64,000 bases of DNA. Origin: Vicugna vicugna. Lineage: Eukaryota. The stretch covers positions 2,767,502 to 2,831,501 of the forward strand of contig MU058059.1 in assembly GCA_013265495.1 (NCBI GenBank), written 5' to 3'. A program made the translations under genes and the position numbers. Positions 6,738 to 36,235 of the stretch are shown here, piece by piece. The notes under the pieces are model-generated. The model did not search any database. It was not told where the DNA came from and was given only the letters and a program-made list of their open reading frames with translations. Each line of letters opens with the position of its first letter. The first letter of the stretch is position 1.

Positions 6738-9700
6738 CTGTGTTAAGAGAGTAACGTTACTTAAAAAAAAAAAGGAATTACTATTCTTTTAAAGTGAAAA
6801 AACATTCTCATGGTTATTATGTTCTTAAAAGGACATAAAAATACCAGTGAAATATTTGCATCATGCAATGAAACGTAGACATTACACTAGGGGGTAATCG
6901 TGCCCTTGGCTTTGAGTCCTCGAGGGTGACCCCATCCTGACCCACACCTGAAGCCTCACTGCTCACACCAGGGAAACGTGAAAGGGACAGTAACAGTTGT
7001 CCCAACAATTTATGGGCAAGTTTCCAAAACAAATTTTCTAGCAGCACAATCAGACGAATCTTATTCTACTTCTATTTTCAAGTCGAAAGTTTTTTTATGT
7101 TTTGTTAACGTTGAAAACATTTGTACCACTTTGAAGAATCTTTTCATTCTGAGTATGTTTTATAGATAAAAATATGTTTGTTTTTAACAAAACCCATCCT
7201 TGTGATTTAAATCCCCACACGGCGTATGTGGTGTGAGGGCGATCGCAGTCACGGCGTGTGTGGGCTGCGGGCGATCACAGTTATTTCTAACATGACTTCT
7301 TATTTTTTAATCTTTATTTAGGATTTTATTAACAGGTAAGTGTGTCTACATGGTTACGACTGTGTGTGTGTTTGTGTATCAGGAATAATTTAATTTAAGG
7401 CTTCTGTGGGTGATCTCGGGATTTTCACTTTGAAATGCTTCATTCAAATTAATTTTAACACACGTAGCTTTTGTTTAAGAAAAAAGACTTCTAAAAATAT
7501 TATGGCAAACTTAGGCTTCAAAGCCACTATTTTCATTTATTTTCTTATTTTAAGGTCTTAAAATAATGAGTGAGGAAAGGGAAGAAGGTATTTTGAATAC
7601 TTGGGTCATTTTGTTTTAATTTTTTTTAATGTGCTGCTCTATCTGCTTTTGCTGTGACTTGAGGCATAGTTAAGAGTGGTGTGGAAATGCCTGCACTTTA
7701 TCCTAGTGGAGCTAAATTAAGGAAAACCACAATAAAAATTATGGAAGCTACAGAAATTTGCAACAGAAAAAAGAAATGGTAATAATGACCAATCAAGGTA
7801 GGATGAACCCTTACTGGAACTAAAACACTAGGCAGCACAAATATGAAAAATGAGAAGGTGCCAACTGGAATTAAATACCAAGTTCCTGTATTTCTTAGGA
7901 AGAAAATGGCTATTGATTAAATTTATCTTTATTAAGACATATTAAATAATCCCTACTCTGTTATTCCTTATTGCTTTTAAATATTCCATAATTATTTCTA
8001 GTTGAGTAAGTGAGCAGGATGAGAGTCAGATGATTAATCAGAGAGCCGGGGGCTGGCGGTTGTGACCAGCACCGCAGACCGAGGTTCCCGGGCTCTTAGA
8101 TTTGTGTGTGGCCTCTCCATTAGTGCCTGGTTCACACCGATTTTCTCTTAATTAAATCTGACACGACCTTTTGGTGTCCAGTCAGGATTTCACATGTTCT
8201 AGTAATGCGCCTGGAAACTGACATCACGGGAAGCTAATGACCTGGAGAAGACCACAGCTCCTTGCACAGTCAGTGCTGCCACACTGTCTTATTCCAGCCT
8301 GAGAGGAGGGTTTTGGGGAGTGGCACGCGTGACGGAAACATCGTCATGTGGAGGGAAACGTGTGCAGGAGGCAGTGACGGTTCTTCCAGGTATCAGGAGA
8401 GCGCACGTCTTTTGAGTCAGTTTGGGAGAAGCAGGCTTATCAGCAAGTTCCTGCTCACCTGACCGTGCCAGGTGGCAGAGAAGACTCAGGTGGGGGAAGG
8501 ACCCGCTCCCGTGGAAAAAGGGATTTGTCTGGTGTGAGAGCTGTGGAAATTCAGTGACAAAAAAAGGCAGAAGCTCTATTTAATGTCATTAAGTCATCGC
8601 TTGTGACACCAGTCCTAAAAAAGCGTACTTCATTATAGCTCCAAAGTCTATTTTCTCCTGTTTTGCTAAATTAAACTTAAAATTCCACTGAATTTGTCAC
8701 TAAATTAAATTCCCACTAGGCCGGTGAACATTCTGACCCTGTAATTTTGGACATAAACGGTGTTTCCCCTGAGACCTATCCTTAGAAATGCTGCCATTTA
8801 TATTTTTGAATTTAGGTTGAATAAAATATGCCCAAGTTTTCCCCATCATCCAGCATTTCTCAGTGTTTGCTTCTAAATCTTTCCTTGATTTCTGTTGTTT
8901 CTTTTAAACAGTAATGGGGGAACATTCTTAGCGATTCAGGAAAATAAGCAAATTACATCCCATGCACCCAGCTACCTCCATTTCCTTGTTCTTTTTTGGC
9001 CACTGAAACCGAAAATTATAAAAATGCCATGATTTTAATGAAGTAGCCTCAGGAGAGAGCAACACTATCAAGTAAGTGTTGTTAAGGATCATTAATTATT
9101 AACGCAGATGCCAGCTGTTTTCTGTGTCACCGTCAGCGCTTTTGTGACACACCAGGCTGATTCAGTCCGTAAACACGGCAGCAGGTTTCACCTTTTACAT
9201 TGCAGTCCTGCGGAAATGAAAGGCTACTGAATGTAAGGTTATAGATGGAAGTGTTCTGGAAGCAAAGTATTGAAAAATCACGTAAAGTTTTGTCATAAAA
9301 ACTTACTCAGAAACCACTGAAGGGACATCTGATGATCTGAACGTGGAGTAACTGACCTCAGAATGCTTATTCTAGATTATTGCCAGCAGCAGCAGTAAAA
9401 ACAATGGATCAGAAATTTAGGGCCCCTGTATTCCATGAGCAAGAGCTTGTAAATGAACGCATGAATCGTAGGTCGCTCTTTTCCACGTCGAGAGTCCCCT
9501 GTCAGGGGTCCCCGGTTCTAATGGAGAGAGCTGGAGCCCGGCCAGCGCCCTGAGCCGGGACTCCAAGTTACCTGCAGCTGACAGCCCTCAGGGTCCCCGC
9601 CCCTCGCTCTGCACTGCGCCCACGCCACCCATCACCCCTCTGCTCCCTGGACCAGTCATGTGGTCGGAGACTGATGTTCACAAACAAGGCTTTGCGGGTC

Positions 9701-13520: not shown

Positions 13521-15799
13521 GCTCAGGAGACGGGAGGTGTTCCTCTGCTTGCGGTGGAATGCCAGCGCGTAGCTGTGCTGTCTTCCCTTCCAAACTCTCA
13601 GACGCCGCTGTGAGCTCAGGACCTCGATTCTCAGCACTCCTGGTTGACACCGAAGACGTGCTGCATAGAAACGGCAGTGTGCCGGGCGCGGCAGTCATCC
13701 ATCAAGGCTTGCAGTCCTGATTTTCAGCACCTCCCACTGCCGTGAGCGAGGGCTCGTCGGGCACAACAGCCGTCCATGAACGTCCTTCACCCCGCTCTCC
13801 CTGGCTTGTACTTGATTTTACTCTGCTCTCGTTCCTCCTGCCCTTTCTCGTTGCTGCTCCTTCAGGGACCAGGGGTGTCAGGACGGCCCCTCCGCACGTC
13901 TCCTTCTCAGCAGAGCGAGGTCTGTGCGAGCCGACCACCAGGAGGGAAATGGAACGTATCACTGGCCTGATACTGTTGAAATTTGGGGCCCTGCCTTACG
14001 AAGGCTTTGGTCCCAGGGGGACAACTGCTGAGAATAACCCTCCCGCCTATCGTGCTGACATCTGTGAGCACACAGCGCAGCGAGCCGGGCTCCCACCCAG
14101 CCAGCGACTGCAGGAGTCAAAGACCGGGCTGTCGACCGTAGCTGTTCATACCGGGGGAGGAGGGTTTGCAGCATCCTTGCTTGCTGTTTTGGATTCCTTG
14201 TCTGAGGAGCTTCGCTGTCCGTCCGCCCCGTGAGCGATCCCGTGACCTCTCTCTGGACTGTTCTCCCTGTGCTGAAGGCGTTCCCCACCCCTGCCCTAGG
14301 GAGACGGACGCGGAAGGCGGAGGAGTACCTTCTGACCACCCCCTCCCCGGGTGCTCCTCCCCCAGTTTCAGCCCTGCTAGGGTGTGGGCCTGAGAGCAAC
14401 CGCCCTGGGCACCTGGCACACCTCTGTGGGCTCACGGTGTCGACTGCCCGACAGCCACAGTCACTGAGACCCCACCAGGAGCTGCTCAAACCCAGTGGTG
14501 TCTGTGAGATCTACCCCGCCCGGCCTCCAACATGATTTTTGATTTTGTTTTGAGAAGTGTATCTCTGAGAAAGTCGTAATGTATTCGGGTCTCAGGAAAT
14601 AATTTGAAATATGTTGAATAGAGAAGAAAAACAGGATTGACAAATTTTGCATTAAAACCCTTACATTTAGGTGACTGCCTTCTTCTATTTCCCCCTCTCC
14701 AAAAAAACAAAAAACATACACAAGATTTGAATGAACATTCATGAAAATATCTTGAATCATCAGCCAAGAAGACGAGACTCTGCAGTGTGTGCCCTGAGCA
14801 GCTTTATTGTTGAACTGCCCCAGGGACCAGGGGCAGGAGAGGACCACGTGTTGTGCAGGCGGGGACACGCTCACGTCCTACCCTCACCTAATGCATCCTT
14901 CTCTCCTGATCTTTTCTTTCAGTCCAGGTCAGTGGGTGAGAACCTCGTCAAGATTAAACTGTATGTCATCACCCAAGTGAGCCACCAATGCTTATAAATG
15001 CCCTTTATTTTCAAGATAGCCCAAATCTAGTCACGTAAACATTAAAAAAAAAAAAGCCATGTCATCTTAAATACCAGTGTGCGCCTCGGTGAAGTGGTGC
15101 AGCCATGTGCCTGAAGTTCTTTCTAAGTCAAAAAGCATTGGGATTTCTTGATTCAAAGAGCTTGTATACAGGTCAAACTAATCAGTGATTCGAAACCTAC
15201 AAATCTTGTGTGTCCCACAGTGACTCCTCCACACGAGACTGCCTGGCAGTCGGAGGGGCAGCCGAACGCCCAGGTGCTGGGGCTCTGTGATCCCCGCCCC
15301 CCCCCCACCCCCAGGAGACCCTGCCCCTGGCCCCGGCCAATAAGTCTAGAGTCTCTTGGGTTAGGACATCAAAACTGTTTTAAAGCACCACAGTAGCTGT
15401 AATATGCCGCCAGTGTTGAGAACCACTGCCTTCGACAGAAGAAGCCGGGATCACACTCTGGCTATAGGGTGATGGGTTAAGTTTGGTGGCCAAGCCTTGG
15501 GGCAGGGAGATGCAGGGAAGCTGCCTCTTAGCGGTTGGGAGCAATTCCACGGCGGCAGCACCAGGCGGCGCTCTGAGGCCTCGGGGACCAGCAAGCTCCT
15601 TCTGACAAAGGTGCCCCCCTCCGGTGACCCGGGAAGGAGGACAGGCAGCATGCTTTCGAGGTCCTCCAGATACTTTCCGAAAGACGTCAAGAAACAGACT
15701 CGTACAAATATTATATACTCATATTAGTTAATGTTTTTATATTTAATACAACGTTTTCATAGCAAATAATACGGTGTATGCACATGCATGCAGACTTAC

Positions 15800-17843: not shown

Positions 17844-17941
17844 GACCGATGCAAGAGACCATCTACGACTTCTGGAGGATGGTGTGGCACGAGAGCACGG
17901 CGAGCATCGTCATGGTGACCAACCTGGTGGAGGTGGGGAGG
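17844..17941 (+). CDS. PTPRM: PTPRM coding exon (D1 domain): (G)[32 protein letters not shown], 98 nt, starts in phase 1
   Basis: Pyrimidine tract plus ctgcag acceptor ending 17843; donor gtgagt at 17942; PTP motifs GP...DFWRMVW and IVMVT; R2B-type sequence matching PTP-mu. Confidence 0.96.
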
Positions 17942-19414
17942 GTGAGTGAGCGCTCACGCGGGGCGTTCGGCCCCTGCTTCACTGGTGTGCGGAGTGAGGC
18001 GAGGGCAAGTTCTGGAGGCACCGTGTGCATCCAGACAACGTTAACCACTCAGCTCCTCCATCGCTTGCCACACTGGCTTATAGATTATCAGTAAACACAG
18101 CCTGAACTGCTTTCATTTGTTGCGACAGCAACAGGCAGAAGAGGCACTCAGGGTTTAGCAGCAGTTGTTAGCTGGCTGCACTGAGCACGCGGAAACCAGA
18201 AGCACCGCGAAGTGCACGCTGGCGGCTGGGGGTCAGGACACCGTGGGAGGTGCGGGAAAGTCCCCCGTGGGAGCCGCCCGCAGCCCTGGAGTCAGCCCCG
18301 GCTTAGGACTCCAGCATCTCCTCTCCTCAGACTTGACTTTCCTCGTCTCCTGACTTGCAAAGTGGAGACCACACTCCGCCCCCCGGGTCTCGTATCCCTT
18401 CATCTGTGCTGTTAATAAGCTACTTTTATTCAACCAGGAAACTCTCACGTAGTTAAGATCTCGGTCCTAGCACGCGACAGGCGTATTTCCAACACAAAAT
18501 TTTAAAATGAGAAGATACACAGGGTGCAACTGCTTGGTTGAATAGTGGAGCCAATTCCATGGTTCTGCTTGAGAACCGTGGCTTCTTAGAGAAGTCGATG
18601 TTCGGAGGTTTACCAGAGATTAGCCTTGAATTGAAATATTGGGGCAGAAACCATAAAGGAGTTGTTTCTAGGAGTCTCTGTTAGCCTTAAAAAGAGAAAG
18701 AAATCCTGCTGTTCACAACACAGACCTGAAGGGCATCGTGTCCCGTGGAATAAGCCGGTCGCAGAAGGACAGGCACGCACGGTCCCACTCACAGGAGAGG
18801 CCTGGAGCGGTCAGATTCATAGAAGCGGGAGGTTCAAGGGTGGTCGCCGGAGGGGAGGAGTGGGTGGGGGTGTGAAGTGGGCTCAGCATGTGTAAAGTTT
18901 CAGCTACGCCAGGTTCTCTAGACCTGCTGTGCAAGTAGGGCTGCTGGTCAGCGATATGGCTCCGTGCGCTCAAGTTGTTGCAAGGATAGAGCTCGTGTAA
19001 AGTGCTCTTACCACCCGCACGCACACGTGCGCACACACAAGCAGGAACCCGCGGCAGGGGTCGGGCGTTGCCTGTCTCCCTGGCAGTAGTGACAGTCGGT
19101 GCCCAGGAGGTACGCGTGTGTTGAAACCCATCAAACTGTGCAGGTGCCGTCCTTTGTATGTCAGTTGTCCTTCAGTAAAGCTGTTTTAGAAATAGATTTT
19201 CTGGAGGTATCAGAAAGCACGAACTGGGAAGAAGAAAGACGTTAAGAAGAGGGAGCTACTTTACTCACAATTCTAGCAAAAATGGCCAACTAACTTACCT
19301 GAAGACCATCCTCCTACAAACGTCTAGACATTTTCAGTAAAATATAGATGTGTATTTTAATGCATTTCATGCAAAATGTACATGTATATGTAAACTTGTG
19401 TTTAAAGTGTTGGA

Positions 19415-33434: not shown

Positions 33435-36235
33435 GTACGTTTTCATGCTCCTTTGGAAAGCTATGGTCAGCCGTGAGTGCTGGCAGCCTCATTAACTTAC
33501 CTGGGATCATTCATACGTGGTCACACCTGAAGGCAGGTGGGCTCTTTCCAGTCATTTCTCAAGATTGCATCTCGCCCTCTGATTCTGTAGCAGCTCAGGT
33601 CCATCTTTGAAACAAATCATGCCCATTTCACAAAACTCTGTGTTGCAACAGACCCGAAAGATACCACCTCTCTGTCTACTGCCTCTTCCTTTTTAAGCTG
33701 GTAGATGCTGTCCTGCCCATCGCTCTGTCTGGTTCACAGACAGTTTGATACGTGCCCTTTGTGCCATATGTCCACGTGGGTTTCCTGGTCGTGAGTTAGC
33801 GTCACAGGCCTTAACTCCTCCTGGAACCCCCCTACTTTCTTGGGGCTTTTCCAGCCTGTGGGTTTCATAGGACAAATGGGTTTTCCAGGTGGAAGTTTCC
33901 ACCTGGAAACACAAGTAGACGCGGGACACCCTTGCATGACCAGCGCCTCCGTGCATCCTCGCCGCCATGCTGGTTCCAGCCCTCCGTGCCCACTGGCCCT
34001 GGGTGGGGGTCGCTGTGGCTCTCTGCCTCGTCCCATGTGCATGGATGGGGCCTCTTCTCCGGGAAGCGCTGGAGGGCGTAACAGGGAATCTCCTTGCTCC
34101 CCCTCTTTCTGCTGACATAGGGAGGGGCCGGAAGTGACGCACACTGCAGTCCGTCCAGAGAAGCGTCACAGGTAGGCTGCGGGGGAGTGGAGGTGACGGG
34201 GCCGAGAAACCTGCTGCCCTGCGGTCCTCGTCTTGCCTTCACAGGAGGGGACACATGCTTTTGTCTGGGAGGTCCGCAGACTTTTCTGTCCAGACCTGAT
34301 TCTCCATGACGGAGCCCTGCACTGGATGTGGTGATGCGTCGTGGACTTACCACTGGCGGGTCCCCTGGGAGGACCCGGGCTGAGGTGGACTGCTGGGCAC
34401 TTGGCTCCCGGCCCTCCTCTCTCATTCTCATGACATCAAAGTGCACTTTCCAGATGAACAAGACCAGTTTTAGGAAGTGAGGAAACAGCAGCATTGGCTT
34501 GTTGGCTAATTTACCCTGCTGTTTGGAACCACCTCTCCTGGTTTTCAAATCCGTATTTGTCATAGAATCACAAGGCTGAAAAGACTTTCCTTTATTTTAA
34601 CCTGTTTCTCAGACTATTTAGCATTTTTCCCCCTCAGCCTGTCTTTTTTAATAAGCAGGCAGGAGGCTTGGAGACTTCAAAGAATGTGAAGTTCTGGTTG
34701 ACTCAGTTCTTCGAGTTCTGAACCTCACACTTTGATGTCAGTTTTTTTCCTTCTTAGGCAGGATTGAGGGGAAAATATGGGGGATTTTTCTGTGGCAAGA
34801 GCATTCATGAATAACTGCATTAAAACAGCGATAAAAGACCCTGAATATTCTTTTCTCTAAAAAAAAAACCATCCAAAAGCCATCACTTAAACATGCAGTC
34901 CTTTGAACAATAGTCAGCTCTCTAATAAGCTGAAAATGCATCTCTGTTGCTAAAGGAAGGGTTTGTTTGTTTCTTTGCTCTTTTTTAACCTCTTACTGCC
35001 CCCTCCCACATCCCCAGCTACACAGAAATGGTTCTGAAATGCCCAGTTATTTTAGTCACCAGACAACCAGCCAAGAGGTGGTGGAAGGAAGGCAGGACAA
35101 GGAGCTTGTTCAGGCATTTGGGGAAATTAAAATGACGTGTTAGTGATTTTCTAACCGGGCAGCTGGAATCTCTAAGGAAAATAAATCATTAGTACTTCTG
35201 TGGAACGCTGCTTGTAGGTTTTAAACTTTCTCATTAGAAAGGAAATTAAAAACAACAACAACAGCCGAGCGTGCACCTTGACAGTCCCACAGTTCTGATT
35301 CTACTTTGAGAGTATTTGCATCCAGAGCCCTGAAGGCGATAAGTGGGTCTGGGTTCCATTTCCGCAAAGCAAGCAGGTAGGTTGCACTTTGATCAATTCC
35401 TGTTTGACCTGGGACTGTCTTTCCTTTCCTGGGGGAGCTGATGACTCAAAGCTACACAGATTTTAGATCACAAAGTGCCGGTCCTGTCAGGAGGACGGCT
35501 GAAAAGTCTCTGTGGATCTGGGCAATCTGGTGACTCTGTCCCCACCTCTCTGGGCAGGAAGGAAGCCAGCAGTGGACACTGAATCCTCTCTGCTGGAAAC
35601 TCAGAGAGGCAGGAACTGGCCCTGCTCCTCTGTGAGACAGGACGTGCACCTAGTGATTCATTTTTGCCCCGTCTTTATCAGGCGCCCACTCTGGGTGGGC
35701 ACTGCTGTTTGTCTCGGGTTCTGCCATCCCATTATACCACAGCGAAAATGAGTGAATGTCACTTTTTCATATAGCAATAATACTAAGTATTATATTTATA
35801 CTGTATATAACATAATTCTCATATTATTTCTATAACATTAATTCTTACTAATGAAAAATAAACAAAAATACACTTGATATCAAGTTGGGAGGTCCTGGGG
35901 CTGTGAGCACTGGTCCTACCTACAGTTTTCCCCCACGTAGGTTACAGAACAGCGGGAGGCAAAGCTGCCATGTCCGTGAGCAAGCGTGAGAGGCAGCTCG
36001 GGCAGTTTCCCTGCTAATCTTGTCAGTGGTGAACGTATCTGAGGGTGGAGGTCCACCTGGGGAGAAGGTTCCCTACACCCCAGACACTGACATCGACCTC
36101 GCTGAGAAAGTGAGCCTTAGATCAGCTGGGGGCCCATCTCACGACGGATGGAGTTTGGGGTCTGGGGATGCTGGGTCTGAAATCTAGCACAGCTAGAAAG
36201 GGAAGTGCCCAAAAATTAAAAATAAAAATCACAGC

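Follow-up and report, generated by a model that had tools for sequence, protein, structure and literature searches.

A well-formed 14-nt splice cassette deep in a PTPRM intron of Vicugna vicugna, a possible silenced cryptic microexon

Does a 14-nt element deep in an intron of a receptor phosphatase gene of Vicugna vicugna act as an exon, as a recursive splice site or not at all? The window, the whole 64,000-nt stretch of DNA analysed here (G000:C1337:2767502-2831501; genome of 2.03 Gb), is assigned to PTPRM, the gene named in the original prediction, because a buffalo protein, P0082 (database name PTPmu), maps along the locus in 31 segments, mostly at >80% identity. The exon upstream of the element lies outside the window (L002:6055-6091), measures 37 nt, is flanked by AG and GTAAGT, encodes GYHRPNHYIATQ-G, has AAG as its last letters and ends in phase 1. 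The start of the following exon at 17844 in phase 1 is confirmed, and the premise that no other exon precedes the candidate holds, with 0 coding exons of the reference protein between the 37-nt exon and 17844. These two exons enclose a host intron of 21,752 nt, in which the candidate lies 11,230 nt from the donor and 10,508 nt from the acceptor; 11 constitutive exons follow their junction. The region 7150-7450 is single-copy, matching only itself in a search of the genome (E≤0.001). The three best paralogous exons are those that we take, from their peptide signatures, to belong to PTPRT, PTPRK and PTPRU.

Re-reading of the letters places every part of the cassette where it was first reported (Table 1). 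The AG-free zone before the acceptor spans 39 nt, counted from the last upstream AG, vs a median of 31 nt for 43 real acceptors. A second branch-like motif, TTAAT (A 7310), is located inside the U-rich tract, 25 nt upstream of the CAG that forms the 3′ end of the candidate (7333-7335), itself a possible recursive 3′ site of 4.9 bits. The host intron contains two AT-rich patches (4 of 85 tiles), one of which is occupied by the cassette. Within this otherwise AT-rich patch, the area of the 32-nt tandem repeat reaches a CpG count of 8 per 100-nt tile. No stable RNA fold or hairpin switch is detected across 7200-7420 (z = -0.31), no RBFOX motif is found in 7200-7500, and no UGC enhancer is found near the acceptor, the nearest TGC lying 55 nt upstream, at 7266. 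With a canonical acceptor, a canonical donor and a branch point, the cassette has the sequence anatomy of a poison exon. The cassette is well formed and real in sequence; its use in splicing is unproven.

Table 1. Positions of the cassette, its surroundings and the related PTPRM exons (window coordinates unless a locus is given)
Feature	Position	Strand	Description
AT-rich patch around the cassette	7060..7640	.	GC 0.32; intron ~50% GC
32-nt CpG-rich unit, two head-to-tail copies	7218..7281	+	84% identical; adjoins the branch motif; contains AG 7279
Branch-point motif TTCTAAC	7285..7291	+	Putative branch A 7290, 31 nt before TAG
AG-free U-rich tract	7292..7318	+	Last 20 nt before TAG: 80% pyrimidine, 70% T
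TAG acceptor	7319..7321	+	8.2 bits, above 11 of 43 real acceptors
14-nt candidate microexon	7322..7335	+	Joined to the 37-nt exon: in-frame stop TAA at 7330-7332
GTAAGT donor (CAG/GTAAGT)	7336..7341	+	13.0 bits, above 43 of 43 real donors
UG/GU-dense tract	7342..7385	+	19 TG+GT dinucleotides; candidate TDP-43/CELF site
Next constitutive PTPRM exon	17844..17941	+	98 nt, G-PMQET...VEVGR, phase 1 start
Counterparts of the 27-nt and 12-nt neuronal Ptprm microexons	L007:243-269; L007:4148-4159		Juxtamembrane region; the 12-nt one has an AAG acceptor

How often such a cassette arises by chance depends on the stringency of its definition. A strict rule shaped on the candidate finds it as the sole match in 524 kb of sense strand, with 0 matches antisense; because this rule was post hoc, weight matrices were built from 43 junctions of the source genome, auto-detected in PTPRM and two paralogues, a few of them possibly imperfect. 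The matrices were scanned over 964 kb per strand, with the antisense strand as control, and a cassette pair was defined as an acceptor and a donor 3-30 nt apart with a total score at least that of the candidate. By this definition, 15 pairs occur antisense, about one per 64-kb window, and nine occur sense, including the candidate. Requiring a YTRAY branch motif, with 1 bit of slack, leaves one antisense and six sense pairs, again including the candidate. By chance alone, about 7% of windows (strict definition) to most of them (loose definition) should contain such a cassette, and many are therefore expected when a large number of windows is scanned. The CTAAY form of the branch motif is present at only 3 of the 43 real acceptors. 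The splice signals are good yet not beyond chance at the scale of a scan; less common is their combination with a UG-dense tract.

Further cassettes are found in the same intron and in a paralogue. About 665 nt after the 37-nt exon, a T-rich tract, CAG, 20 nt and GTAAGT (L002:6756-6775) form a cassette that would shift the frame if used, and a 13-nt cassette at 14923-14935 (+) combines a CTAAT branch motif and a 90% pyrimidine tract with a weaker GGG-type GTGAGA donor. In the PTPRT-labelled paralogue (G000:C9999, ~2,035,966, +), an 18-nt cassette that keeps the frame, with a strong tract and a CTAAC branch motif, scores slightly above the candidate and is possibly a real microexon.

The tract behind the donor ranks in the top 0.13% of 44-nt tiles across the 524-kb locus, and its longest run is only (TG)5, at 7361, <100 nt from the donor. 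UG repeats adjacent to the exon, the mark of TDP-43-type cryptic exons, are accordingly present in a short run. The count of 19 TG+GT in the 50 nt after the donor is the highest among the cassettes compared, namely those with both sites of at least 5 bits; at least 17 per 50 nt follow 4 of 549 sense cassettes, 0 of 486 antisense cassettes and 0 of 43 real donors (maximum 14), in a test chosen post hoc, after the candidate was known. UG density, branch motif, AT-rich patch and repeat were all selected after inspection and are partly interdependent. The sense strand of introns tends towards G+T richness, which can account for some of the UG-tract excess confined to that strand, and activators of the CELF family are also able to bind such tracts. 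The GU repeats listed after the donor in the original prediction are present; a silencing role, which it did not consider, is now part of the leading reading. In the next intron, a 23-nt cassette (19087-19109, +) with sites of 7.9 and 8.8 bits likewise precedes a stretch dense in UG (17 per 50 nt).

Translation in silico of the candidate joined to the 37-nt exon gives ...IATQ-G-F-Y-stop, so the phase and the Gly-Phe-Tyr-stop reading first proposed are correct; skipping of the candidate reads GYHRPNHYIATQGPMQET in silico. The exon junction corresponds to residue 1001 of 1497 in P0082 numbering, before the WPD loop (1106) and the 10-letter motif (1139). Stops far upstream of the last junction lead to NMD. 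The stop precedes a downstream junction by >50 nt, and the included mRNA is a predicted NMD target because 11 junctions lie downstream of the stop. A product escaping NMD would be a receptor without the WPD loop, the catalytic Cys motif and D2. Inside D1, an in-frame 51-nt cassette exon at 34121-34171 (+) reads GGAGSDAHCSPSREASQ after FAVEK; since 6 of the 133 stored proteins that cover this position (models from primates, rat and buffalo) carry a homologous 17-residue insert, that exon is already annotated elsewhere.

Stored proteins and paralogous introns were searched for the candidate. Among 261 stored proteins (the best 120 of 1109, the best 120 of 457 and all 35 matches), none of the 194 with the IATQ junction continues as QGFY, a weak negative, given that few NMD isoforms receive annotation and that clustering conceals members. 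The equivalent introns of the paralogues measure only 0.6-1.4 kb, and those of PTPRT, PTPRK and PTPRU contain no significant local match (scores of 25-26 vs shuffled maxima of 26-34). An origin of the element by duplication of the 37-nt exon, as a mutually exclusive copy or its relic, was rejected: that exon ranks third of 43 acceptor regions, and with 400-nt flanks the score of 35 falls within the shuffles (maximum 43). Exact and degenerate pattern scans of metagenomes gave 0 matches each and, run without a positive control, are uninformative. Among 24 rows of sequencing runs, 14 carry 0.97-1.00 of the words (DNA by guess in 10, kind unrecorded in 4; organisms A-D, one of them possibly the source), shares that point to near kin only; six RNA or possibly-RNA runs contain 0.06-0.17 of the words, unaligned to the sequence, and thus carry no splicing evidence.

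Published catalogues were covered through their supplements. In the mouse MicroExonator table (file 2 of PMC7821500; 2,988 rows, 289 bulk samples), the chr17 minus strand at 66-68 Mb carries exactly two microexons, of 12 and 27 nt, whose counterparts at the PTPRM locus are identical at 10 of 12 and 26 of 27 nt; because both have such counterparts, they are identified as Ptprm exons and serve as a positive control. A 14-nt Ptprm exon is absent from that table, which an NMD-bound or rare isoform could escape. PTPRM is likewise absent from the 394 conserved human cryptic exons in the supplement of PMC11632617, and the PTPRM candidate is absent from 12 of the 13 supplement files of a mouse-neuron AS-NMD study (PMC11188260) and from four of the five small supplement files of PMC4317164, among which the full catalogue is not included. 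The 11 of 27 supplement files of PMC5630039 that were searched are uninformative. No report of a PTPRM microexon, poison exon or cryptic exon was found in the full-text literature, a scope outside which most subscription journals fall.

We tentatively favor the reading that the 14-nt element is a splice-competent cryptic microexon, normally skipped or silenced. The CTAAC branch point could engage U2 and the perfect donor U1, both signals being present in the sequence. At a length of 14 nt, exon definition is hard to achieve unless helper factors assist; a UG-binding protein, such as TDP-43, may be recruited to the UG tract that follows the donor and would hold the exon off. Leakage or loss of the repressor would yield an mRNA reading ...IATQ-G-F-Y-stop, and this stop-bearing mRNA would enter NMD; the cassette would persist through silencing, with no regulatory role and no requirement for conservation. 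A perfect donor and a UG tract could coincide without such a role because a strong decoy on the sense strand would be costly unless silenced. In the available part of Jeong et al. 2017 (PMC5289002), non-conserved cryptic exons are skipped owing to adjacent UG repeats and usually lead to NMD. The silenced cryptic exon is favored because the donor exceeds all real donors, the branch motif is of the rare CTAAC type and the UG density is at the top of its range, and it fits the absence from the mouse table and from the 194 junction-bearing PTP proteins, as expected of an exon that is silenced or lineage-limited. It is weakened by antisense cassettes of equal score at about one per window, by a UG run of only (TG)5 and by the post hoc nature of the UG test.

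The catalogue negatives fit equally well a chance pseudo-exon that is never spliced, in which a passable acceptor happens to be followed, 14 nt on, by a perfect donor within an AT-rich patch; we regard this as somewhat unlikely. Such a pseudo-exon agrees with the 15 antisense pairs that score as high in 964 kb, with an acceptor in the lowest third of real ones, with the missing traces in the catalogues and stored proteins searched and with the PTPRK, PTPRT and PTPRU introns without a counterpart. Conserved exons usually have constrained flanking sequence, and the 32-nt local duplication sits directly on the 5′ flank of the cassette. Chance is harder to reconcile with the single antisense pair per 964 kb that remains once a branch point is required, and with the coincidence of a perfect donor, CTAAC, the long AG-free zone and top UG density. 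We consider unlikely a conserved, regulated poison microexon, whose inclusion would be switched on by a tissue factor (putatively CELF or a TIA-type protein on the UG tract, or QKI on CTAAC), with PTPmu lowered through NMD or a phosphatase-dead receptor as the outcome. The complete splice anatomy with its in-frame stop speaks for regulation, as does, weakly and indirectly, the location in one of the two AT-rich patches of the intron; PTPRM uses other microexons (12 and 27 nt), and the portion of PMC11632617 available to us documents a class of poison exons that are unannotated, conserved and missed by poly(A) RNA-seq. Counting against regulation are the mouse, human and mouse-neuron lists above, from which the exon is absent within the files covered, and the missing RBFOX motif and UGC just before the acceptor. 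The regulated off-switch of the original prediction is a hypothesis, and neither the searched catalogues nor the junction proteins contain such an exon.

Recursive splicing, the other function first suggested, is improbable. Here the TTAAT branch, too near TAG, would select the CAG at 7333-7335 as a zero-length site; joining to the 37-nt exon, with its AAG end, would rebuild GTAAGT as a strong donor, and the intron would leave in two halves. The site lies near the midpoint of the 21.75-kb intron with TTAAT at 25 nt from CAG, and two possible RS-exon donors are present downstream (5.7 bits at 7588, 8.7 bits at 7798), an RS-exon ending at either containing a stop. The position of the candidate AG/GT also agrees with the definition given in the available part of PMC6110456, an AG/GT in an intron >5 kb, with every annotated site >2 kb away. 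The CAG, however, scores as a weak acceptor on the matrix built here, above 6 of 43 real ones, with 60% pyrimidine and another AG 14 nt before it; TAG would be picked first from the best branch point (7290), and equally strong AG/GT sites number 15 in 964 kb antisense. In the supplement of Zhang et al. 2018 (PMC6110456; 12 of 15 files searched), PTPRM is confined to S1 Table, compiled by motif and conservation, with 25 rows, the two inspected both in intron 1, and is absent from the files that hold, by their numbering, 342 read-supported human sites; on these grounds the recursive alternative is weak. The supplement of PMC10156609 contains no PTPRM in the part covered, a weak negative since 'chr18' is absent as well, and one paper in the recursive-splicing literature names PTPRM solely among long lungfish genes. 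Very improbable, as a joint claim, is a single 14-nt mammal-conserved element read two ways by two branch points with a UG-binding protein setting the balance, in which A7290 and TAG would give a poison microexon switching off PTPmu catalysis, and A7310 and CAG a zero-length recursive site removed without trace. PTPmu level would then depend on TDP-43 or CELF activity. None of the readings held above that slight level of support amounts to a new kind of system.

SRRM4-type neural microexons carry a UGC enhancer shortly before the acceptor and have frame-preserving lengths, whereas the candidate has no UGC there, measures 14 nt and contains an in-frame stop. TDP-43-repressed cryptic exons, as described in the available part of PMC5289002, resemble it as unannotated intronic cassettes with adjacent UG repeats, a premature stop and predicted NMD; the candidate differs in its length of only 14 nt and its short (TG)5. 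The conserved poison exons in the accessible portion of Margasyuk et al. 2024 (PMC11632617) are similarly unannotated cassettes creating an NMD isoform, selected on conservation and split reads and with a median of 94 nt, whereas the candidate was recognized from its letters. The 12- and 27-nt neuronal Ptprm microexons listed in the table of Parada et al. 2021 (PMC7821500) share gene and approximate size with the candidate and differ in keeping the frame, having weaker splice sites and being detected in mouse RNA. Vertebrate recursive sites, in the portions available of PMC6110456 and of Hoppe et al. 2023 (PMC10156609), share YAG/GTAAGT deep in a long intron and a branch-like motif 25 nt upstream; here, by contrast, an AG interrupts a weak tract, a better acceptor competes from 14 nt upstream, and the intron measures 22 kb, vs 329 kb as the median at saw-tooth sites. 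If used, the cassette would work like a poison or cryptic exon; membership in the poison-exon class is not established.

As a silenced cryptic exon, the element would be one more of a large known class, notable mainly as a lineage-specific TDP-43 target. If it were conserved and regulated, it would constitute a splicing off-switch for PTPmu, a cell-adhesion receptor phosphatase, placed just before the catalytic core, and antisense oligonucleotides at the cassette could raise or lower PTPmu level.
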